Shown one piece after another: positions 3,554 to 25,315 of a stretch of DNA of 32,000 nt. This DNA is from Haloquadratum walsbyi C23 (GTDB taxonomy: Archaea > Halobacteriota > Halobacteria > Halobacteriales > Haloferacaceae). Positions within the stretch are counted from its first letter, which is position 1. Every line of letters begins with the position of its first letter. A program made the position numbers and the translations under genes. The notes under the pieces are model-generated. The model did no database searches. It was not told the origin of the DNA and was given only the letters and a program-made list of their open reading frames with translations. The DNA lies in contig NC_017459.1 of the NCBI RefSeq assembly GCF_000237865.1, forward strand, positions 1,230,001 through 1,262,000, in the 5' to 3' direction.

Positions 3554-3997
3554 TAGTCTCTCTCATTACCTTGAGACGACTTATTTATCAATTATATTAG
3601 GCATTTGATGACATAACGGATAGACAGCGTGAACTCACAGATTGATATTGAGTCCCAGAGCAATGAATTCATCAAGGCTTGATCAATATCGAAACAACCC
3701 TCTCTTTATGAACATCATATAATGTGTGCACAGACTAATTACGGAATCTCAAGAAGAAAGCTTCGCGCTTTGTTGTGGGGAAATCCGACATGAGGGACGC
3801 CACCCGCGAAGTATTAATTTGCGTGATAGCACATTCAGTCGTAAGTACATCAGACGAAGATTAGAGTTGATTTGAGGTCTCCAGTATCACAAAGCAATCC
3901 TGCGTCGGATAACCACTCACCCTCGTGGGTGAGTCGGATCGATGGCAGTGTCTGTGAGATCCAAACGGATACCCAGCCCCAAGCATGTCACGCCTCG

Positions 3998-4063
3998 CCT
4001 CGAGCGAGACCCGATATAGTGAACTCACCTCGAGCGAGACCCGATGTAGTGAACTCACCTCGG
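3998..4063. repeat. Tandem 30-bp repeat, 2.2 copies: cctcgagcgagacccgatRtagtgaactca. Member of a dispersed GTGAACTCAC repeat family.
   Basis: 3998-4027 and 4028-4057 differ at one position (a/g). A third partial unit, cctcgggg, starts at 4058. Related copies lie at about 3620-3638, 7838-7868 and 25193-25270. Confidence 0.85.
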
Positions 4064-4244
4064 GGTAGTTGCCTTGACCGCCTGTATACAAATCATAACT
4101 GAGATGCCGATGGTCTCGGCCAGGGTCCTGTCGAGGATGCACAACCAGCGTGCTGCTCCACGAGGGAAGCCTCGTGATTCAATCCGGTGAGAATATCAAA
4201 GCTGTCACAGAAGGCATATCAGACTACATTTCTTATATTCATGC

Positions 4245-4379
4245 ATGAGACCGAGCGTCGACATTGAGCAGTGTGAGATGTATGAATGTCCTACCTGCGG
4301 CGTACGCGCAAGCGAGCGAGGGGAATGTGAGTCGTGTGAAACAGAGCTCATTTCAATTGGTTGCGAACGAGACTTGTAG
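4245..4379 (+). CDS. Small CPxCG-related zinc-finger protein (44 aa; below the ORF track cutoff).
   Basis: Hand translation: MRPSVDIEQCEMYECPTCGVRASERGECESCETELISIGCERDL, stop TAG at 4377-4379. CPxCG plus a second CxxC make a four-Cys zinc ribbon, common as tiny genes in haloarchaea. An internal M12 at 4278 is an alternative start. Confidence 0.45.
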   Translation: MRPSVDIEQCEMYECPTCGVRASERGECESCETELISIGCERDL

Positions 4380-4828
4380 GATCCGCCTCCACGTGCGGTA
4401 CCGTCAGGAGCAGTGTCATTATTTTCTAGACATGTAGTGTATTGATAATGTAGCGGATGGCTTGCGTGCCCTATTTACCGCTTCTTCATATGACATAGAG
4501 TGATTCCACAGTACCACGTCACTGGATATGGGTCCGACGACTCCAAGTCTCATCCCTCTGCTCGTGTAGTTGGAACCGCTTAAACAGAATCAATTGAATA
4601 AGATCAGATAAACTAGATATAGTATATATTATCCGAATCATAAGATCAATAAAAACAAAGTTGTGGTGACTTGTTGACAACATTATGAGGTTCATGAGAT
4701 ATCATTGATCTCTGGTTGGACCACAATCGCCAATTTTGAATCTCTCTCACTGTCGGAGGGGAATCACACGATTCGGCGCCTCAAGATCGTAGCGCGTCTT
4801 TGTCGAAACGAATGTCCCAGATTACACA

Positions 4829-4972
4829 CTAGTCGTGTGCGACAGTCGTATTTCTCATTGTGCCGCCACATTTTGGACAACGACTCTGCTCTTCTACATC
4901 CTCGACACCAGTTCCACAATCACGACAGATATGTAAATCGCCGACAGAATAGTTTGGATCCGTTCTCATCAT
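4829..4972 (-). CDS. Small CPxCG-related zinc-finger protein (47 aa; below the ORF track cutoff).
   Basis: Hand translation of the complement from ATG at 4972: MMRTDPNYSVGDLHICRDCGTGVEDVEEQSRCPKCGGTMRNTTVAHD, stop TAG at 4829-4831. CxxC...CPxCGG..RN is the pattern of haloarchaeal rubrerythrin-like/CPxCG mini-proteins. Track ORF 4705..5028(+) is its antisense shadow. Confidence 0.55.
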   Translation of the reverse strand: MMRTDPNYSVGDLHICRDCGTGVEDVEEQSRCPKCGGTMRNTTVAHD

Positions 4973-5335
4973 GTTTTATAATTAATATCTTAACATACTT
5001 AACATATGTGCTACATTTCTGTAAGTAAGCTACTCCATCTCACTTGTCAGTCGAATTAGTATTTTGAGCCCTAGAGTTATTCTCAGTGGCGCTTTATTAC
5101 AGTATTACAGGGATTGCTGATTGCTTTCATCAAATAATTCCGGGCACTTGCTAATCTATTTGAACATGATGACCTCACCATCGAGATTTGATATTCTCCA
5201 TATCCTGGAGGGCGAGGATTCTCAGGCGTTGGGATATTGAAATTCGCAACCTGCCATTCTCTGGGTGGAACAATCCAGAGGCTTGAGCAAAGAGGTACAC
5301 CGCCAAGATAAAATGACTGAGAAGAGTGGACGGAA

Positions 5336-6655
5336 TCACCGATCTATAGTTTTCGTATACGGCCAATCGCCAATGACTTGCATCCCTTCAGCGCGATTTT
5401 CACGCTCAAGTTGATCAGCAATCGCTGATGGTGGGCGATGGGCGACTGTTGTATCGTCGCTGGCGAGTTCAATAACCAGTTCGGTCAATAAAATCGCTTG
5501 CTCACGAAGGTCACGGACCGATAATTTATCAAGTGTATCGGCGTGAGTATGACCCCAGCCACGACCGACATCGCCTGTATCTGCTCGAATATGATACCCC
5601 GGGACACCCCATGTGACATATGGCCAATGGTCACTGTGTGGATTCAATTCAGGTGGCACATCAATCGGATGATCCATGCGGGCAGCAACGCGGTCAGCAG
5701 CGTCGATAAGATCATCAAACCCATGTGCATGACACACGAGCGTTCGATTCCGAACAACCCCGTCATTATTTATAATTGCCTTAATCGTCTCATAATCACG
5801 CGAATCAGCATCGTATTGCGACCCAACGAGTCCAATTTCCTCGGCTCCATACACAAGAAGATGCACGCGGGTATCAAGCTCAGATTCACGCTGTGCAAGT
5901 GCGCGTGCAACTTCGAGCACTATTGCGGTTCCAGCAGCATTATCAGCCGCCCCTTCTCCAATATCGTGGGCATCAACATGACTTGTCAATAAAACAGCAT
6001 TCTCTGTCTTTGGACCAAGGTCAGCATGGATATTCTGACTTGTCGTGTCATAAATATCGACATGAGTGTTGACAACCACATCATCCCCTGTAAATCGTCG
6101 AGAAAGCCGTTTTCCGACCTCTTTTGAGACACCAACTGCTGGGATTTCTCCGATCGGAGCTTCCTCAGTTCCAACGCTACCGGTTGGGGGTAAGCATCCG
6201 TTGACGTGGTTCCGATAGATGAATGCTGAGGCTCCAGCATTGACTGCTCGGTAATATTTCTCTCGTCGATGAACGTAACGATCGTGCCAATCTGGGATGT
6301 CACTGGCAGCAAGGATGACCTTCTCATTAAGATCACAATCAAAGTCAGCGGGGAGTCCGTGCCCAATATCAACTAATTCACCCATTACATTTCCGCTTGG
6401 ACTGCGAGGAAGAGCAATGCAGTCCTGCGCTGTATCCCCAGCATGTATCGCAGCAGACTCACGCGCCCAGCCCTGTATTTCAAATTCTTCGAGATGTGCA
6501 TCTCGTACACCAACATCTGTAAGTGCATCACGTGTCACCTCAGCAGCATGGCGTTCCCCACCGCTGCCAGCCATCCGGATATCGATATCAACAAGCCTCT
6601 CAAGATGCTTCCATCCGATGTTACTTGTGAATGTCTCACCAATCCAATCAGTCAT
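5336..6655 (-). CDS. M28-family metallopeptidase (aminopeptidase with an inserted PA domain).
   Basis: 439 aa. LLTSHVDAHDIGEGAADNAAGTAIVLEVARAL (Zn ligands H/D, DNA.G), LLVYGAEEIGLVGS (EE pair) and HTHADT are typical M28 motifs. No signal peptide. Confidence 0.85.
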   Translation of the reverse strand: MTDWIGETFTSNIGWKHLERLVDIDIRMAGSGGERHAAEVTRDALTDVGVRDAHLEEFEIQGWARESAAIHAGDTAQDCIALPRSPSGNVMGELVDIGHGLPADFDCDLNEKVILAASDIPDWHDRYVHRREKYYRAVNAGASAFIYRNHVNGCLPPTGSVGTEEAPIGEIPAVGVSKEVGKRLSRRFTGDDVVVNTHVDIYDTTSQNIHADLGPKTENAVLLTSHVDAHDIGEGAADNAAGTAIVLEVARALAQRESELDTRVHLLVYGAEEIGLVGSQYDADSRDYETIKAIINNDGVVRNRTLVCHAHGFDDLIDAADRVAARMDHPIDVPPELNPHSDHWPYVTWGVPGYHIRADTGDVGRGWGHTHADTLDKLSVRDLREQAILLTELVIELASDDTTVAHRPPSAIADQLERENRAEGMQVIGDWPYTKTIDR

Positions 6656-13022: not shown

Positions 13023-13326
13023 AAATGTATATGATTGCTTCAGAGGAAATTGTCTTTCGACAATCACTCACTATGCTGATACCACGCGTTCACACCTAAT
13101 AAAGAGACTATCTGTCAGGATTGTACTAGACCGAATTATATCGATATGTAGGGAGTGTATATTAGATCAGCTGTCGATACTGTGAGTTTCTTTGTCAGTA
13201 TGTGAAACCGAATGGAGCGCGCCAACTCAACTCAATTGAGTGTAATTTCGGAGAGAAACACTGTCAACGCATCAACAACTGATATGAGGGTGATTATCAC
13301 GTACGCACACCGATGTGAACGTAGAA

Positions 13327-14202
13327 ATGATAAACGAACACGGATTTGCGGATTTGCACGTTCACACAACTGCATCTGATGGGGTTGACACGCTTTCTGA
13401 ACGATGTGCCCGTGCTAGGGAGGTCGATCTTCCTATCTTTGCTGTAACTGATCATGACTGTGTTCATCCAGCGTTCTCGAAACCAATTATGAAGCGAGAT
13501 CATTGTGCCGTTATTAATGGGGCTGAAATTCGAGCGGGTGTCGCAGGTCATGAGATCGAAATTCTCGGACTATTTTTAGATCCGACATCATCAGAGCTTC
13601 AAGATGTCCTTGAGCGCGTCCAACAACACCGAATCAACCGCAATCAAACCATTGTGAATGCACTCCGCACTCACGCCGGACTGGAAGCCACATACGAAAT
13701 GCTCATTCATCGTGTTGATGGTGTTTTGACACGTCCGCACTTAGCCGAGCAACTCGAACGTGAGGGCATTGTTGAGTCACATGACGAGGCGTTTCAGCAA
13801 TATCTTCAATCCGGTGTCAAAACACATGAGCCACTCAAGTTAGTTGCGTGTGAAATAGTCATCAGCGCGATTCATGCTGCGGGTGGCGTTGCATCGCTTG
13901 CACATCCCGGATATTTTCAACCACCCACATCAGAACATACATTTGATTCACTTGCGTCATTAATTCAGAGACTCAAAACGGCAGGATTAGACGCAATAGA
14001 GGTGACATATGAGTATGGTGCATCTGGATTCAGCCCTCCAAGAGCAACGACACTGGCGAATAAGACCGATTTATTGCAAACTGGTGGTTCGGACTGCCAT
14101 GGGGTGGATACATCAATAACTAGCATTGGCGATGTTCGAGTCTCTCGCTCACAATTTCGTCGTCTATATGAAAGATCAGACACCACTATCCGTCCGCACT
14201 GA
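13327..14202 (+). CDS. PHP-domain metal-dependent phosphoesterase (TrpH/RNase AM-like, COG0613).
   Basis: FADLHVHTTASDG is the N-terminal PHP motif. Also VTDHD, LAHPG and GGSDCHG. The track start at 13315 is a GTG; the first ATG is at 13327 (MINEHGF). Confidence 0.85.
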   Translation: MINEHGFADLHVHTTASDGVDTLSERCARAREVDLPIFAVTDHDCVHPAFSKPIMKRDHCAVINGAEIRAGVAGHEIEILGLFLDPTSSELQDVLERVQQHRINRNQTIVNALRTHAGLEATYEMLIHRVDGVLTRPHLAEQLEREGIVESHDEAFQQYLQSGVKTHEPLKLVACEIVISAIHAAGGVASLAHPGYFQPPTSEHTFDSLASLIQRLKTAGLDAIEVTYEYGASGFSPPRATTLANKTDLLQTGGSDCHGVDTSITSIGDVRVSRSQFRRLYERSDTTIRPH

Positions 14203-14400
14203 TATTCTCACTGAGCACGCAGTATATGATAAAATCGCTAACACTTGATACTACCTCGCAATTCTATGAGGACATTATAAAATGAGATTATGCGACGCTG
14301 ATGGACGCTCTCATAAGCGTTGTATATACGACATTCTGATTAGTAATATCAACAAATTAATATAATCATAGACATTCAATATACTAACACGTAATTGCCG

Positions 14401-16287
14401 ATGTTTGTGTATGAGAGTACAAAATCTGGATTCTTAGATGATGTCCTGGCAGGTCGGTTAGTTTCAGAGATTAAGCGGGGATATCAATCACACGGGATTG
14501 GGATGGGCGCTTCCAATGAAATTCGGTCTTGGAAGAACTCACTGCAGTACATGCATACAGTCTTGGTTAACAGTTCAGTGCCAGACAATGCAGGGGTAGC
14601 AATCGAATTTAAAATCCCACTTACCTCACGCCGAGTCGATTTTCTTCTTTCAGGATATGATAATGCGGATAATGCGAATGTCATAATCATTGAGCTTAAA
14701 CAGTGGAGCGGCGACAGCACTCAAATGGTCGCAGATAAAGATGGAATTGTGAAGACTCCCCTGGGGGGTGGTATACATGAGACAACCCATCCAAGTTATC
14801 AAGCAAGCTCATACGCTCAGTTGTTAAAAGATTTCAACGTCACTGTTCGTGAAAAGCCGATTAATCTATATCCACTGGCATATCTTCATAACTTCGAATC
14901 GGAGCATCGAGAAAAGCTCGATAATGAGACATATCAATCATATATTGCGAAAGCACCGCTCTATATCCGTGAGGATACAAGACAATTGCGTGAATTCGTT
15001 GCATCACAGATTGATACTGGAGACAACAGGAAGAATCTCTATGAGATGAGCAACGGGAAAATCAGACCGGCGAAATCATTACAACGCTCATTATTATCAA
15101 TGCTCGAACGTCAGGACGAGTTCACATTAATTGATTCACAAAAAGTTGTCTTTGAAAAAGCCGTTGAACTAGCAATACAGTCACGACGTGATGGGCAGAA
15201 ACGTGTATTACTCATAGAAGGCGGTCCGGGAACAGGCAAGACAGTTGTTGCAATCAATATCCTCGCTGAGTTAATTCAACAGGATATGATTACGCAATAC
15301 GTCTCAAAAAATCGAGCGCCACGAGATGTCTATGAACAGAAACTTCGTGGAGATAAATTAGTTAAAGAGATCAAACATCTATTCACAGGCGCGGGTAGTT
15401 TCGTTGAGACAGAGACAAATACAATTCCTGCATTGATTGCTGATGAGGCTCATCGGCTAAACGAGGAATCGACATTTTTTGGTCGCGGTGAAAACCAAAT
15501 TATGGAAATTATCAATGCTGCCAAATTTAGCGTTTTCTTTATTGACGAAAATCAGCGCGTCCATATCGACGATATCGGTTCAAAACAAGAAATCCGGCAG
15601 CATGCACGCAATTTGAATGCTGATATTGAAGAGATGACCCTTACATCACAATTCCGATGCAATGGGTCAAGAGGATACGTCGCCTGGGTAGATGATGTGC
15701 TACAGATTCGACAGACAGCCAACGCAGATGGATTTGATCTTGAGTTTGATATACATGTGTTTGATTCCCCACATGCTCTTCATACGGCGATTGAACAAAA
15801 GAATAATCAGAACCGAGTTTCGCGTGTTGTAGCGGGATACTGTTGGGAGTGGGAAAAAGACGGTCGCGCTGATCCTTCTATCAGTGATATCACGATTGGT
15901 AATTACGAACGGAGTTGGAATCTTGATACAAATGACCCATGGGCGATTACTGAGGGGTCAATTGATCAAGTCGGGTGCATTCACACGTGTCAGGGACTTG
16001 AATTTGATTACGTTGGCGTAATTATTGGTGAGGACTTGAAATATCGCGATGGAGATATCATCGTAGATCATGAAGAGCGAGCGAGCACCGACAGATCATT
16101 ATTCGGGATTAAGAAAATGTTTCGAGAGAATCCTAACAAAGCGGCTGAGACCGCTGAAGAGGTAATTAAAAATACGTATCGGACACTGTTGACCCGTGGG
16201 ATGAAAGGCTGCTATCTGTACTGCTGTGATGATGAGCTTCAATCATATCTGAAAACTCGAGTTGAAAATATCTCTATTAATTCATAA
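14401..16287 (+). CDS. DUF2075-family protein: N-terminal PD-(D/E)xK-like nuclease module fused to an SF1-type P-loop ATPase/helicase.
   Basis: RRVDFLLSG (D at 14638-14640) and VIIIELKQW (ExK at 14692-14700). Walker A GGPGTGKT (15220-15243). Walker B/DEAH IADEAHRL (15442-15453). C-terminal CQGLEFDYVGVIIG, a UvrD-C-like motif. The track start at 14395 is TTG; ATG is at 14401 (MFVYEST). Confidence 0.85.
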   Translation: MFVYESTKSGFLDDVLAGRLVSEIKRGYQSHGIGMGASNEIRSWKNSLQYMHTVLVNSSVPDNAGVAIEFKIPLTSRRVDFLLSGYDNADNANVIIIELKQWSGDSTQMVADKDGIVKTPLGGGIHETTHPSYQASSYAQLLKDFNVTVREKPINLYPLAYLHNFESEHREKLDNETYQSYIAKAPLYIREDTRQLREFVASQIDTGDNRKNLYEMSNGKIRPAKSLQRSLLSMLERQDEFTLIDSQKVVFEKAVELAIQSRRDGQKRVLLIEGGPGTGKTVVAINILAELIQQDMITQYVSKNRAPRDVYEQKLRGDKLVKEIKHLFTGAGSFVETETNTIPALIADEAHRLNEESTFFGRGENQIMEIINAAKFSVFFIDENQRVHIDDIGSKQEIRQHARNLNADIEEMTLTSQFRCNGSRGYVAWVDDVLQIRQTANADGFDLEFDIHVFDSPHALHTAIEQKNNQNRVSRVVAGYCWEWEKDGRADPSISDITIGNYERSWNLDTNDPWAITEGSIDQVGCIHTCQGLEFDYVGVIIGEDLKYRDGDIIVDHEERASTDRSLFGIKKMFRENPNKAAETAEEVIKNTYRTLLTRGMKGCYLYCCDDELQSYLKTRVENISINS

Positions 16288-16654
16288 TCAAAGTGCATGG
16301 ATGCTGTAGCTGTCACCAGATGAACCTCATTGGTGTCTGTGCAGGTGAGTCGTTGATTCTTCTCTATTGACCACAACCTATTTCATTAAACCCTGACACT
16401 GCTGGTAATGGAATTCAAAAGAAAATATGTTTTGCAATTTGCTATCTTATGTCCCTAAGATATCGAATGACCAGTAGAATCAGTTATATTCAGAACTTCA
16501 CACTTCGGGAGTTGCATCCAGTCACTGCCGAGACTAGCTGTTATGAGACAGTATATGAGATTGCTCAAGGAACTCCACCGCCGGTGGTAAATACAAAATC
16601 CAGGATACTAAATCTGTCATGACCGGTTACAATGAAATATCACCGATATGATCA

Positions 16655-17047
16655 TCATCCATCCAATGCATCAATCACAATCTGTTTATGATCGAATCCC
16701 ATCTCAGGGAGGTCATTTGAATTGAATGTCCCTACCTCAGCGGCTTCCTCTCGTGGAACTGGTGTTTCATTGGTATTGCTTCTGCATCGATAGGCTGCGG
16801 TCACGTTTCCGCGCTTATCACGGTCAGGACCGTCATACAGACCAATAAATTCCTCAATGACAATGCTAAGACCAACCTCTTCTTTTGTCTCACGGACACA
16901 TGCCTCTCGTGCTGTCTCATCTTGCTCAACGAATCCACCAGGAAGTGCCCATGATCCCTCAAACGGGGGATGAGTTCGCTTCATGAGAAGTACTTTTCCA
17001 TCAAATTCAATGACGGCATCAGTTGTCAGTGTACGAGGTCCTACCAT
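16655..17047 (-). CDS. NUDIX hydrolase.
   Basis: Complete Nudix box GGFVEQDETAREACVRETKEEVGL (Gx5Ex7REUxEExGU). 130 aa. Confidence 0.9.
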   Translation of the reverse strand: MVGPRTLTTDAVIEFDGKVLLMKRTHPPFEGSWALPGGFVEQDETAREACVRETKEEVGLSIVIEEFIGLYDGPDRDKRGNVTAAYRCRSNTNETPVPREEAAEVGTFNSNDLPEMGFDHKQIVIDALDG

Positions 17048-17283
17048 AATAGATGGTCAGCCCTGTTCATAATGAGTTCTATGGCATCTATTTCTATCCA
17101 GTGAGTCATCTCCAATTTATATTTAAGTTTGATCATGGATATGTGAGTTTTATCACCCCCGTACAAGATAACCGTCAAATAAACTAAAACGTGAATCCGT
17201 CCGGCGATCTATTGTTGATGGATAAACCGTGTATCACTATGCATATCAAAATATAAACACAAAGCAAGCATATACTGCATGTG

Positions 17284-17628
17284 ATGTTAGAATTAGCAAA
17301 TGAAGCGTGTGAGGCATGTACCTCAGAAGATGAACCGCTTGTTGAGAGCGAATATGCAGAGTATCATACTGAACTCAGAGGTGATGTTTGGGAGGTCGTT
17401 GATGATCATCATCTTGAGGCAACATATAATTTTGAGGACTTTCGTGATGCACTTGAGTTCACATATGAAATTGGTGAACTCGCTGAGGAAGAATGGCATC
17501 ATCCAGATATCTCCCTCGAATGGGGGGAAGTAAATATTGAAATGTGGACACACAAAATCGACGGACTGCATAAGACGGACTTTGTGATGGCCGCACGCAT
17601 GGACCGTATCCACAAACAGTACGCCTAG
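17284..17628 (+). CDS. Pterin-4-alpha-carbinolamine dehydratase (PCD/DCoH family).
   Basis: [32 protein letters not shown] matches the PCD signature (E..HHP......V.......H). ATG at 17284 follows a GTG at 17281. Confidence 0.85.
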
Positions 17629-17994
17629 ATAAAAACGAGCAATCGACAGTGCGGAATCGATGCCAAAGGAAAATCACGTAATACTGAGTCTGTCAGTCTT
17701 ACGTATCAAATAGTTGTATAATCAATAATTATCAATCACTCACTATAAGCTAAGCCTCTGACATTCATCATAGACACTGTCGTGTGGATACAACGGATAA
17801 TTGATAAAATATTATTCTTATTCGATATTGCACAATCGCTTGCTAGCCGCTTCAGAATCATTTAATCAATTATCTGATGAACAGGCGCAATCCCACGCAG
17901 ACCGTGGATACGCGCCATCACTTGGGAATCTATCCACGTGATGTGACCACGCTAAGATGTGAACGCTCACAGTGAACTATGTAGGAAACACACT

Positions 17995-18310
17995 AAAAAC
18001 AGAGCGATTCCCCGCGCAGTCCTGCGATGGCGACCTGCCCGCCCACGGTACCCAAGCGATTATCGGAACCAGTCGATACCCAGCGTATTCTCATAGAAAC
18101 TGACTGGAGTTGACTACTGGAAGCAGACACGCAGTAACTCCGAGTCCGCTGATGTTGACTCGACTCTCGCCGGGCAACACCAGCTCCGAGGGTCGGTGGG
18201 ACTGCACCCTGCAATCTCCAACACTCCCACGGAGGAAACCGCGCCGTTCACAGCGCGGAGGATGTCATGCTCTAGAATCCAGAGAAACCCAGTAAGTGAT
18301 CTTACCACAA
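17995..18310 (-). ncRNA. Candidate structured non-coding RNA of unknown class. Strand is tentative.
   Basis: About 58% GC by my hand count over 18001-18300, against about 30% in 17701-17760. No protein-like ORF. Dense hairpins:
- 18148-18184, a 10-bp stem capped by GGC-GAGA-GUC when read on the minus strand;
- 18106-18141;
- 18239-18258;
- 18292-18305.
The two G:U pairs in the 18148-18184 helix exist only on the minus strand. On the minus strand there is a T5 run at 17995-17999 and an AT-rich TATA-like box at about 18321-18333. Confidence 0.4.
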
Positions 18311-18349
18311 TTCACTCTATTGAAATACATAAACAATACATACATAACA

Positions 18350-22325: not shown

Positions 22326-22607
22326 ATTTAGAGCATAATGGAGTCTCACTCAAAAATATCTGGATAGTGGTGATATGAGAGATTTTCAGTACATACCCGA
22401 AGCTCATGAAGTCACAGCATCATCGTATGAACTATTTTCTCTATGTCATCTCACCTTTCTCAAACGGTATGGTTAATCACGATTGAGTCTTTGATACCAG
22501 AGAGACTAGGAGTGTCATACTATCATCCTCTATTGAGCGTCGAGAAGCGATGATTTGAGGTTATATCTGCTTTCTGCATTCTGCTTGCCTAAGATTATAA
22601 ATAAGAT

Positions 22608-22616
22608 CGATTTATC
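22608..22616 (+). promoter_or_regulatory. Candidate BRE/TATA element (cgatttatc) for a leaderless transcript of the DUF1611 gene.
   Basis: TTTATC starts 30 nt upstream of the ATG at 22641. That is the spacing expected for haloarchaeal leaderless mRNAs. Sequence pattern only. Confidence 0.3.
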
Positions 22617-22640
22617 TCAGTTTAGAGGTATATAATATAT

Positions 22641-23657
22641 ATGCGTATTGCGATACTTGCACATGAACAGTTCCCAAACCACGCGAAGACCGCCATTGGA
22701 ATTCTTCGGTATAGCGATCACAATGTCGTTGCGGTTCTTGACAGAACAAAGATAGGCGAACGCGTTTGTGATTATGTCTCAGATGTTCAAGACGCGCCTA
22801 TCATTGAAGAAATGAGTCAAGTCTCCAGTGAAGTTGATGCACTGAGTATCGGCATTGCCCCGATTGGTGGTGATTTTGATTCCACGTGGCGTTCTGATAT
22901 CCAAGACGCGCTTATTAATGGCTGTGACATCATTAATGGACTCCATTACTTTTTAGAAGATGACAAACGTATTTCTCGCCTCGCTGATGAACATAACTGT
23001 GAGATATGGGATGTTCGTAAGCCCCCAGATGATTTGACCGTCAGCGATGGCACTGCAGACAATGTCGACGCTACGGTTGTTCTTACAGTCGGCACAGATT
23101 GTTCATCGGGAAAAATGACCACTTCATTTGAACTTCTACAGGCGGCTCGTGATCAGGGAATCGATGCAGCCGTTATCCCGACCGGTCAGACTGGTGTTAT
23201 GATCACAGACCGGGGGATTGTTGTTGATGGTGTCATTTCAGACTTTGCTGCTGGCGCAGTTGAGCGTATGATCAAGCAGGTAGCTGCTGAGAATGATCTT
23301 ATTATCGTTGAAGGACAGGGGTCGATTGCTCACCCTGCATACTCAGGCGTGACGACAAGTATTCTCCACGGAGCAATGCCAGACGGACTTATCCTCTGTC
23401 ATGCTGCCAACCGCGAAGCTATCCGAGGATATGACCATATCTCGCTTCCACCGATTGATGAATATACCAGAACTTATGAACAACTTTCTGGACTCGTATC
23501 ACCAGCGAAGGTCGTTGCAGGTGCGATCAATACGCATCATATCGAAGAGGCAAAAGCACGTACGGCGGTTGCAGATTATGCTGCTGCTATTGATGCGCCT
23601 GCCACGGATCCAGTTCGATTTGATGCAACAAAGATTCTCAATGCGGTGCTCAAATGA
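22641..23657 (+). CDS. DUF1611-family protein (DgcN-like putative D-glutamate N-acetyltransferase, COG3367).
   Basis: 338 aa. VLTVGTDCSSGKMTTSFEL is the P-loop-like GTDC..GK.TT hallmark of DUF1611. Also IVEGQGS..HPAYSGV. Confidence 0.8.
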   Translation: MRIAILAHEQFPNHAKTAIGILRYSDHNVVAVLDRTKIGERVCDYVSDVQDAPIIEEMSQVSSEVDALSIGIAPIGGDFDSTWRSDIQDALINGCDIINGLHYFLEDDKRISRLADEHNCEIWDVRKPPDDLTVSDGTADNVDATVVLTVGTDCSSGKMTTSFELLQAARDQGIDAAVIPTGQTGVMITDRGIVVDGVISDFAAGAVERMIKQVAAENDLIIVEGQGSIAHPAYSGVTTSILHGAMPDGLILCHAANREAIRGYDHISLPPIDEYTRTYEQLSGLVSPAKVVAGAINTHHIEEAKARTAVADYAAAIDAPATDPVRFDATKILNAVLK

Positions 23658-24697
23658 AAACCTCATTCAATCAAATCAGTCTCAATATCACGGGCAGTTT
23701 CAATATCGCTCGAGGAACAACTGAAAGAGTCGAAATCACTCTTATCAGAATTCAAGATGAGAATGGGCATATCGGCATTGGTGGGGCTACACCTACAGCG
23801 TATTATGGTGAAACCGCAGCCACGATGCGAGCTATTCTGCCGGAGTTTCTTGAGATTATTGAAAGTCATGGCATGGAACCGCGCCATGCTATCGAGCAGC
23901 GTCTCTATAATCACGTCAGAGGGAATCCAGCCGCTCGCGCTGCTGTTTCAACGGCATTGGCTGACATAGCTGGCAAGCGAGCAGACATGCCCCTCTATGA
24001 GCTCTGGGGGTTAGATCCAACTGATATCCCGAAAACCTCATACACAATCAGTTTAGATACCCCTCGTGCAATGCAAGCGAAGGCAGAAACGGCAGTAAAC
24101 AACGGATTTGATATTTTGAAGCTGAAGCTTGGTCATGATAATGAGCGTAATCACAAGCGGATAGCAGCAGTCCGTCAAGCAACACCCGATGCACAAATTC
24201 GGGCTGATGCCAATGCTGCATTGACATCACAACAGGCTGTTGAGATATCTGACATCCTGGCTAATTATGATATTGAATTTCTCGAACAACCGGTGCCTGC
24301 TGACGATATTGACGGGTTACAATTCGTTCAAGCGTACGGGAGCGTTCCAGTTGCAGCTGATGAGTCAGTTATTACAGCCGCAGACGTTTCTCGGGTGTCC
24401 GATGCAGTCGATATCATTGTTGCAAAGCTCATGAAATGCGGCACTCTCCGCGAGGTGCGTCGGATCGCTGCTGTCGCTGATGCTGTAAATTGTGAGTCAA
24501 TGCTTGGCTGTATGGTCGAATCAAACGTATCAATCGCAGCGGCTTGGAATCTTGCTCCCCTATTCGATTATGTCGATCTCGATGGATCACTGTTATTATC
24601 TGAGGATCCTATTGGCGGGATCCCAATGGATGGTAATGCCGCAAATTTATCAGCGCTTGATCGATCGGGAACATGTGCTGTTGATACCGTCGAATAA
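23654..24697 (+). CDS. Enolase-superfamily dipeptide epimerase / N-acyl amino acid racemase (L-Ala-D/L-Glu epimerase-like, DgcA-like).
   Basis: ILKLKLG (KxK), IRADANA (metal Asp), FLEQP (Glu), AADES (Asp-Glu) and KLMKCG (second catalytic Lys) give the MLE-subgroup pattern. ATGA overlap with the upstream gene at 23654-23657. Confidence 0.82.
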   Translation: MKTSFNQISLNITGSFNIARGTTERVEITLIRIQDENGHIGIGGATPTAYYGETAATMRAILPEFLEIIESHGMEPRHAIEQRLYNHVRGNPAARAAVSTALADIAGKRADMPLYELWGLDPTDIPKTSYTISLDTPRAMQAKAETAVNNGFDILKLKLGHDNERNHKRIAAVRQATPDAQIRADANAALTSQQAVEISDILANYDIEFLEQPVPADDIDGLQFVQAYGSVPVAADESVITAADVSRVSDAVDIIVAKLMKCGTLREVRRIAAVADAVNCESMLGCMVESNVSIAAAWNLAPLFDYVDLDGSLLLSEDPIGGIPMDGNAANLSALDRSGTCAVDTVE

Positions 24698-25192
24698 TAA
24701 CCATTCAATCATAAATTGAATTATGATATTTGCCGCTATGCTATTATAAAGTACATATCAATAGCCGTTTTTGGATCATATATTTATAGCCTTGCCAAAA
24801 TAATAGCAAAATTCTGTGATATTATACCCTATATTTGAATTTATCTACGAATCATGTAATTTTGATACTGTGCGATGATTTATGAATAAATGGGATGAGT
24901 TGTATTAATCTGATGAGAAAGTAATATTCAATAACGGGCATTTACTGATTAACTTGACTTGAGTAGACGTTCTCTCTTTGTATATGTGAGTATGTTTTGT
25001 TGTTTCCTCACTTACTGAAATTTCATATCTTGCGTGTCGTAGCTTGAAATATAGATGTAATATACCGGCGGTGAATTACAATACCAGCTTTACCGTGATG
25101 AAGAGCATAAATACAGTCACTTGTCATGTTCAATTGTCGAATCGAATGGTGTAACACGCCTAACGCTGTCCAAGTCATTCGATGATATATTA

Positions 25193-25270
25193 GTCTGCGT
25201 CGTGAACTCACCCCTGGGGCAGTCGCCTTGACCGCCTGTACAATTATCCTTGATGTCGGGTCATGAGCGA
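25193..25270. repeat. Dispersed copy of the GTGAACTCAC repeat family.
   Basis: gtgaactcacccctggggcagtcgccttgaccgcctgtacaa (25202-25243) aligns with gtgaactcacctcggggtagttgccttgaccgcctgtatacaa (4049-4091) at roughly 85-90% identity. Weaker similarity continues for about 25 nt on each side. It lies about 50 nt upstream of the RNase Z start. Confidence 0.75.
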
Positions 25271-25315
25271 TGTGTGATGCATATGATTTAGTCATGTGGA
25301 TGTATAGACTGAGGT

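Follow-up and report, generated by a model that had tools for sequence, protein, structure and literature searches.

What does a single gene resembling a nuclease-helicase do among the ordinary genes of a haloarchaeal chromosome, and did it arrive there recently? The question is raised by a gene of Haloquadratum walsbyi C23 located in a 32,000-nucleotide (nt) stretch of contig NC_017459.1 (assembly GCF_000237865.1, positions 1,230,001 to 1,262,000 of the forward strand), which is termed the window throughout. The gene extends from an ATG at 14401 to 16287 on the plus strand of the window as a complete coding sequence (CDS), and its product of 628 amino acids (aa) is identical to CCC40082.1/WP_014555798.1 of H. 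walsbyi C23, deposited as "DUF2075 domain-containing protein". A preliminary description, made from the DNA letters alone, had taken it for a recently acquired single-gene defence module. We assign a probability of about 0.55 to the reading that the gene encodes an intact, selectively maintained and stand-alone nuclease-helicase of the Nhi-like type, most likely degrading invading viral or plasmid DNA; its recent acquisition is not supported by our analysis.

Domain architecture of the DUF2075 protein

The larger, C-terminal part of the protein is a helicase domain of the DUF2075 or SLFN-group-3 type, placed by Pfam, Foldseek and translation at residues 267-610 (15199..16230, plus strand). Pfam family PF09848 (DUF2075, now SLFN-g3_helicase) matches these residues with 382.5 bits and an E-value of 2.8e-114, for a gathering threshold of 24 bits, over profile positions 1-354 of 354, and this end-to-end match to the hidden Markov model (HMM) bears out the family assignment of the preliminary description. 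Translation located Walker A (GGPGTGKT) at 15220-15243 and Walker B (DEAHR) at 15442-15456, both on the plus strand, and equally recovered ELK and the D80 within RRVDFLLSG, so that the length and the motifs quoted earlier were confirmed. When an AlphaFold2 (AF2) model of the whole protein (mean pLDDT 84, built on 37 homologues) was searched with Foldseek, SLFN11 was the top match and RecD, RecD2, Dda, Dna2 and Upf1 were also retrieved (E 9e-11 to 1e-6), on account of which the C-terminal two thirds can be regarded as a superfamily 1B (SF1B)-like motor. The Walker motifs, together with the structural likeness to RecD2, Dda and Upf1, are those of an SF1B-like helicase fold.

The N-terminal domain (residues 1-165; 14401..14895, plus strand) carries the motif set of RecB-type PD-(D/E)xK enzymes on an alpha-beta-beta-beta-alpha-beta core, into which a beta-hairpin is inserted in the AF2 models (helices and strands at H38-55, E65-69, E79-86, E92-100, H131-145 and E154-162). 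The putative catalytic residues span 14605..14814 on the plus strand and comprise E69 (14605-14607) on beta1, D80 (14638-14640) at the start of beta2, E98-L-K100 (14692-14700), whose E98-x-K100 pair lies on beta3, and Q134-A-S-S-Y138 (14800-14814) in the next helix, alpha2. Among 59 archaeal and bacterial family members, E69, D80, E98, K100, Q134 and Y138 are at least 97% conserved. The succession E/D/ExK/QxxxY is the pattern of RecB-family nucleases, and the QxxxY motif present here is typical of them. Since the domain can moreover be aligned to the predicted nuclease of the anti-phage protein Nhi-like, we regard it as a predicted RecB-type PD-(D/E)xK nuclease; the combination of a PD-(D/E)xK-like module with a DUF2075 superfamily 1 (SF1) ATPase, as first proposed for this gene, is thereby upheld at the level of motifs and profiles. 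The two domains are joined by a helical linker (residues 166-266; 14896..15198, plus strand; helices H167-261 in the AF2 models), for which no family match was found.

Separately from the catalytic motifs, four cysteines of the helicase domain (C420, C481, C526 and C604; about 15659-16212) were observed to be 97-100% conserved in archaeal and bacterial members and may constitute a putative metal-binding site.

Relation to known nuclease-helicase defence proteins

The best PADLOC matches of the protein were PDC-S41 (E 1.2e-18), AbiO (5e-17) and Nhi (4e-15), in line with the kinship to defence-associated DUF2075 proteins that had been suggested earlier. Nhi-like is an experimentally verified anti-phage protein (Millman et al. 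2022), and it can be placed in the same family as PDC-S41 because its verified sequence (Bacillus cereus FSL H8-0482, Millman supplement) scores 8.8e-76 on that profile. Alignment of our family profile to Nhi-like by hhalign gave a probability of 93% over 273 columns, in an alignment that takes in the nuclease motifs and Walker A and extends to Walker B. Both proteins are single polypeptides of about 610-630 aa in which a predicted N-terminal nuclease precedes DUF2075, and both have the motif order E...(R)RxD...ExK...QxxxY, then Walker A, then Walker B. They differ in that their identity is only about 24-25%, in that the host of the present protein is archaeal and halophilic, and in that its subfamily is usually accompanied by a MazG-like partner and includes some members with an S24 domain. 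Phages escape Nhi-like through loss of a DNA methylase (10.1101/2022.08.27.505566).

The likeness to Nhi (SERP2475 of Staphylococcus epidermidis) consists in a PD-(D/E)xK nuclease with an SF1 helicase overlapping DUF2075; Nhi confers single-gene immunity for which both the nuclease and the helicase motifs are required, and its homologues were reported by Bari et al. from only three bacterial phyla and two phages (10.1101/776245). No sequence identity was found between Nhi and Nhi-like by Millman et al. (2022). With 53 bits, the Nhi HMM covers only residues 239-422 of the window protein, a stretch of 184 residues in the helicase core that corresponds to profile positions 179-332 of 470, and the C-terminal glyoxalase/bleomycin-resistance-like domain of Nhi is absent. 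The designation as an archaeal Nhi-like candidate therefore stands as regards kinship to Nhi-like, whereas membership in Nhi itself was too strong a claim. AbiO of Lactococcus resembles the window protein in combining an N-terminal restriction-endonuclease-like domain with an SF1B helicase and is SLFN group-3-like (PMC13064643); AbiO differs in being encoded on plasmids in Lactococcus and in being the shorter of the two (profile of 468 positions), and the match is restricted to residues 190-439. All three proteins, Nhi, Nhi-like and AbiO, act as single genes (Millman et al. 2022; 10.1101/776245; PMC13064643).

Schlafen group 3 (SLFN11, SLFN5, SLFN14) is related through the shared Pfam family PF09848 and through SLFN11 as the top structural match. 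In eukaryotic Schlafens, by contrast, the N-terminal domain is a tRNA-cleaving SLFN/AlbA_2 domain and not a PD-(D/E)xK domain, and sequence similarity outside the P-loop is negligible.

Family distribution and loss of a MazG-like partner

A family scan with one genome per species, comprising 80 loci from both domains of life, returned proteins with 43-98% identity to the window protein over residues 1 to about 620. Identity was 98% in Haloquadratum J07HQW1, 87% in J07HQW2, 63-81% in other haloarchaea and 65% in Nanohaloarchaea, and bacteria such as Marinobacter, Paenibacillus, Bacteroidota and Geobacter reach 43-52% over the full length; the window protein thus belongs to a subfamily held together by at least about 43% full-length identity. 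The subfamily is also present in methanogens. A HMMER search gave 726 cluster representatives at E <=1e-30, whose identities grade continuously to about 32%, and the IMG/VR viral contigs hold only distant relatives (24-30%). Long forms of 794-809 aa in bacteria carry a C-terminal LexA/UmuD-like Peptidase_S24 domain (L050:10001-12385, L047:10001-12427, L041:785-3058 and L068:9980-12409 in our numbering of loci). Domains of this kind respond to RecA filaments on damaged DNA, and the fusion hints at activation of these forms by RecA filaments or DNA damage.

All-against-all comparison of the neighbouring genes, by clustering of open reading frames (ORFs) followed by tblastn rescue, uncovered a gene for a MazG-like protein of about 115 aa directly upstream of the DUF2075 gene and on the same strand. 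It was seen at 42 loci by ORF clustering and at about 59 of the 80 after tblastn, either overlapping the DUF2075 gene or separated from it by a gap of 0-15 nt, and such loci occur in both domains of life (L007-L085, e.g. L008:9647-9994 and L050:9644-9991; L133:7648-7995; L137:3657-3986). The partner matches PF12643 (MazG-like) with E 1e-9 to 2e-17 and conserves the metal-binding motif E-x2-E...E-x2-D; no PADLOC or NCBIfam family was found for it, and no account of the pairing turned up in our literature search, which covered MazG with PF09848, COG3410, and MazG-like nuclease-helicases active against phages. Intact pairs are present on a plasmid of Halalkalicoccus jeotgali, in Hbt. hubeiense, Hfx. 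prahovense, Har. sebkhae, A07HR60, Salinirubellus, Salinarchaeum and Haladaptatus, and in a record deposited as Microcystis phage Mwe-JY31.

In the window, by contrast, the upstream MazG-like gene is missing. Neither ORFs nor tblastn nor six-frame translation revealed a MazG-like gene or remnant in 14203-14400 or in the window as a whole, which agrees with the earlier statement that no partner gene is adjacent, and the partner is fully absent in J07HQW1 (L006) and J07HQW2 (L014) as well. In two metagenome-assembled genomes (MAGs) of Haloquadratum sp., J07HQX50 and LUM.47, the helicase gene lies in a different context from that of the window and is directly preceded by the remnant ...KRLKNEIRYPANEY, the C-terminus of a MazG-like protein (L011:9920-9991, L009:9920-9991). 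As the pair is intact in their closest relatives (A07HR60 and a Haloarculaceae MAG), it follows that the partner was deleted in Haloquadratum, probably twice as judged from a tree without bootstrap. Copies without MazG also recur independently and sporadically in other archaea and bacteria. The single-gene character ascribed to the module is hence correct for the window and not for the family, which is normally a two-gene operon with the MazG-like gene; as the comparison of loci indicates, the single-gene state is derived from a two-gene module.

Despite this loss the gene has not been released from constraint. With dN/dS (ratio of nonsynonymous to synonymous divergence, dS) of 0.07 relative to the orthologues of both J07HQW1 and J07HQW2, it is as constrained as FtsX or RPE65, and the helicase gene is kept by purifying selection in Haloquadratum. 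The orphan retains essentially all positions conserved in partnered relatives, and when substitutions of the partner-less clade that might mark a lost interface were looked for, only 7 scattered, lineage-specific positions turned up. The convergent NUDIX gene downstream was considered as a replacement for MazG and rejected: it is absent in J07HQW2, lies on the opposite strand at a distance of 367 nt and has a dN/dS of 0.24.

Proposed function

The window protein is homologous to AbiO, Nhi and above all Nhi-like (PDC-S41) and has their architecture, which makes a role against viruses or plasmids the most likely one. The SF1B-type DUF2075 motor would be driven by ATP to translocate on or unwind DNA and would thereby feed it to the RecB-type PD-(D/E)xK nuclease, by which the invading DNA would be degraded. 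The target might be modified (methylated) DNA, as has been inferred for Nhi-like. In the Haloquadratum lineages, the helicase gene, which in the subfamily is normally co-transcribed with the MazG-like gene, lost this partner by deletion and has thereafter been inherited vertically at its present chromosomal position. In genomes that hold the pair, the MazG-like enzyme would, more speculatively, hydrolyse particular and possibly modified dNTPs.

The viruses of Haloquadratum are unusually rich in DNA methyltransferases (PMC12418951), and it is therefore an attractive idea that the orphan, like Nhi-like, acts in a modification-dependent way. That the orphan is one half of an immune module composed of a MazG-like enzyme and a nuclease-helicase, exchanged between the domains of life and S24-gated in some bacterial versions, and that by itself it performs modification-dependent restriction against Haloquadratum viruses, is a further proposal that we consider tentative and rather improbable in its entirety.

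Several observations weigh against a defence role. When residues 1-262 were modelled separately with AF2 (pLDDT 87), Foldseek found no significant match to the model (best E 0.27; EndoMS at E 0.42 with a TM of about 0.25), NERD matched the N-terminal domain below the cut-off (E 0.03-0.05), and the PDB, searched by sequence with the protein as well as with the profiles of the family and of the N-terminal part, yielded only P-loop-level or chance matches. The nuclease assignment is therefore based on the motifs, the topology and the homology to the nuclease predicted in Nhi-like. The PDC-S41 match itself is weak: it amounts to 64.9 bits, spread over 3 stretches, whereas the verified Nhi-like protein reaches 253.6 bits on the same profile with a fragment of 399 aa. 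The loss of the usual partner could mean an altered or reduced function. The neighbours in the window, namely an ABC transporter, RPE65, PHP, NUDIX, pterin-4a-carbinolamine dehydratase (PCD), amylase and exonuclease VII, are ordinary genes, and the locus is hence not a defence island, a setting that is met with in some relatives (Salinarchaeum, J07HQX50, Marinobacter). In one H. walsbyi contig from a saltern metagenome (Ga0209917_1007009, L088:847), blastn and alignment of the junction revealed a clean deletion of 1100 bp (14275..15374) that removes the promoter region and codons 1-325, leaving a variant without the 5' half of the gene, which contains the nuclease domain and Walker A. Finally, stable synteny and an inter-domain identity of about 50% are unusually conservative for a defence gene.

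Alternative explanations

The main rival reading, which we hold to be unlikely, is that of a DNA repair or replication-restart enzyme performing Dna2/RecD-like end processing, and in other genomes working with MazG-like house-cleaning of aberrant nucleotides. An SF1B-like fold is shared with Dna2, RecD2 and Dda, and Dna2, itself among the fold matches, has the same order of a RecB-type nuclease followed by an SF1B helicase; however, the nuclease domain of the window protein has no Fe-S cluster cysteines, unlike that of Dna2, and the subfamily differs from Dna2, RecD2 and Dda in its patchy, accessory spread and in having no significant sequence match to solved structures. Strong purifying selection, long-term synteny, the very high conservation across domains and the LexA/UmuD-like Peptidase_S24 of the bacterial long forms would all suit a repair enzyme, and so would the NUDIX and exonuclease VII genes in the window. 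In Salinirubellus (L134:12134-20072), the pair is followed by a Metallophos gene (Mre11-type phosphoesterase fold), an unannotated gene for 904 aa, NurA and DUF87 (HerA-type), a cluster that resembles a second Mre11-Rad50-NurA-HerA set.

The distribution of the family speaks against repair, and its gene contexts suit an accessory or defence role. Its spread is patchy, as genera such as Haloferax and Haloarcula each have it in a single species, and members are plasmid-borne in Halalkalicoccus, Methanosphaera, Hymenobacter and others. The gene adjoins integrases and MCM in Har. sebkhae, integrase and HNH genes in Hfx. prahovense, and toxin-antitoxin (TA) genes in Hbt. hubeiense and Haladaptatus. 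In Salinarchaeum it lies between McrBC/Mrr and type I-D CRISPR-Cas, and in J07HQX50 it is accompanied by a Dnd-associated gene and by genes for an SNF2 helicase and an AAA_15/23 ATPase. The MazG-like/DUF2075 pair of Marinobacter has an SbcCD-like pair upstream and is flanked as well by a protein of 1282 aa (L054:12526-16374) with methyltransferase, PLD, SF2 helicase, S24 and DUF3427 domains; that DUF2075 NTPases can have DUF3427 enzymes as neighbours had been noted by Lutz et al. (PMC6765204). As these contexts indicate, the family is accessory and, taken as a whole, clearly subject to horizontal transfer. The closest characterised relatives, moreover, are all anti-phage proteins, and the L088 contig is a natural deletion variant, which likewise disfavours repair.

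A recently acquired, foreign single-gene defence module, in which the many lysines and the AT-rich flanks would have been left, un-ameliorated, by transfer from a non-halophile donor, is a reading to which we give very little weight, although the compositional figures on which it was built were largely reproduced. The protein contains 34 lysines in 628 residues (5.4%), compared with 2.1% in the peptidase encoded at 5336-6655 and 0.8-4.0% in most window neighbours (about 35 and about 2% in the preliminary description); its pI of 5.29 is the top value among haloarchaeal members, in a window of acidic proteins, and the G+C content (GC) of the gene is 42.6% versus approximately 47-50% in neighbour genes. 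The flanking spacers, first estimated at about 200 and 370 nt, measure 198 nt (34% GC) and 367 nt (41% GC). To this can be added the mobility of the family as a whole and the variable content downstream of the gene: NUDIX and PCD (window about 16268-18349) are absent at the site in J07HQW2, and a segment of approximately 6 kb with 54-60% GC directly follows NUDIX in J07HQW1 (L006:13000-19000), so that the site just downstream of the DUF2075 gene appears to be an indel hot spot.

These traits, however, are not those of a foreign gene. GC at third codon positions (GC3) is 0.384 versus 0.388 +/- 0.033 in the other window genes, the gene ranks with the most host-like ones of the window in its synonymous codon usage, and the GC deficit is confined to codon positions 1 and 2, where it reflects amino-acid composition. 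Lysine amounts to 4.4-6.1% in all 16 halophilic archaeal members versus 7-10% in most bacterial members; lysine-richness is thus, on this comparison, a trait of the family, already lowered relative to bacteria. The spacers are also ordinary for a window in which all 19 intergenic spacers have 31-46% GC (30-1782 nt, most of them 150-700 nt), and AT-rich spacers, taken earlier for a sign of transfer, flank nearly every gene. No tRNA or Rfam element able to mark an integration site was found in the window.

The comparison of strains leads in the same direction. J07HQW2 has the gene order ABC, FtsX, RPE65, PHP, DUF2075 and then amylase, as in the window, at about 80% nt identity, and J07HQW1 (about 89%) is collinear only up to the NUDIX gene, with no amylase orthologue found within its 10-kb downstream flank. 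With respect to J07HQW2, dS of the gene is 1.06 and thus close to that of the flanking genes (0.83-1.0). In a neighbour-joining (NJ) tree without bootstrap, the halophilic archaeal sequences, which are the nearest relatives, form one clade apart from bacteria, and no non-halophile donor is indicated for this reason. Host-typical codons, family-wide lysine content, ordinary spacers, synteny and flank-like divergence together identify the DUF2075 gene as an old resident of H. walsbyi, and the recent acquisition proposed in the preliminary description is not supported.

A decaying relic, functionless since the loss of the MazG-like gene and on its way to a pseudogene, is just as hard to credit: the lost partner, the 1.1-kb deletion of the promoter and 325 codons in a single metagenomic contig and truncated copies elsewhere (538 aa in A07HN63; a partial copy on a Haladaptatus plasmid) would fit it, but the ORF is intact in three lineages and in a 90%-identity cluster of 80 members that come from many saltern metagenomes, all catalytic and family-invariant residues are kept, dN/dS is 0.07 over a dS of about 1, copies without MazG recur independently elsewhere, and Nhi, Nhi-like and AbiO work as single genes.

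Organisation and variation of the locus

The window has 45.5% GC and a coding density of 74%. As described before, a PHP gene lies upstream and a NUDIX gene downstream (16655-17047), the latter confirmed on the minus strand. Within the upstream intergenic spacer (14203..14400), roughly 40 nt ahead of the ATG, lies a TATA-like TTAATATAAT (14357-14366), which by the archaeal TATA consensus is a putative promoter of the DUF2075 gene. An in-frame TTG at 14395, 6 bases upstream, was examined as an alternative start and discarded: homologues align from the ATG, and the deposited protein is the ATG form. In the downstream spacer (16288..16654), which ends at the convergent NUDIX gene, no terminator-like site was found by a promoter and terminator scan of the bacterial type, which is uninformative for the DNA of an archaeon.

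Three further contigs with an identical NUDIX protein were retrieved, in each of which the 628-aa gene adjoins NUDIX. The NUDIX protein itself (130 aa) matched the PADLOC candidate PDC-S07 with E 3.4e-13, only the Nudix-box half being covered.

Rearrangement was also observed on the PHP side. At PHP codon 12 (window 13315-13350), all upstream DNA is replaced in two independent metagenome contigs (L087:1-6003 and L140) by genes for GAPDH, a PEP-utilising enzyme and a transporter, and the codon is a recurrent rearrangement breakpoint inside PHP. Relative to J07HQW1, dS is about 0.10 in PHP and the DUF2075 gene (window 13315-16287) but 0.34-0.43 in FtsX, RPE65 and NUDIX, which suggests a recent homologous-recombination tract over PHP and the DUF2075 gene only.

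Farther away, window 22365-25273 is a lineage-specific segment whose two genes at 22641-24697 have no counterpart at the same position in J07HQW2 (L014). The 1.8 kb at 3554-5335 yielded no ORF of at least 110 aa and no tRNA or Rfam match, and may hold pseudogene remains or short genes.

A cluster on plasmid pBT62A of Bacillus thuringiensis (L132:4211-8641) comprises an NTP pyrophosphohydrolase, an HNH endonuclease, a DUF2075 protein and an HD-domain protein, with a second DUF2075 gene nearby; its DUF2075 protein has 25% identity to the window protein (full-length BLASTP, E 5e-46) and is distant from Nhi-like (E 2e-6).

Significance

H. walsbyi dominates saturated brines worldwide and is exposed to heavy viral pressure there. 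Little is known of its means of defence beyond CRISPR and surface variation. The gene studied here is an archaeal, partner-less addition to a known type of nuclease-helicase defence protein. If its role is antiviral, the single-protein nuclease-helicase immunity of AbiO, Nhi and Nhi-like would be extended to archaea and to high-salt biochemistry, and, should a modification-dependent defence prove true, it would be the first of the Nhi-like type shown in archaea.

The associations with MazG and S24 at the level of the family are a more novel lead than the window locus. The MazG-like partner, the S24 fusions and the identity of about 50% between bacteria and archaea point to an uncharacterised and widely exchanged module, which would link hydrolysis of the nucleotide pool to degradation of DNA, and the natural partner-less copies, such as that of H. 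walsbyi, provide a ready-made test of what the partner contributes.

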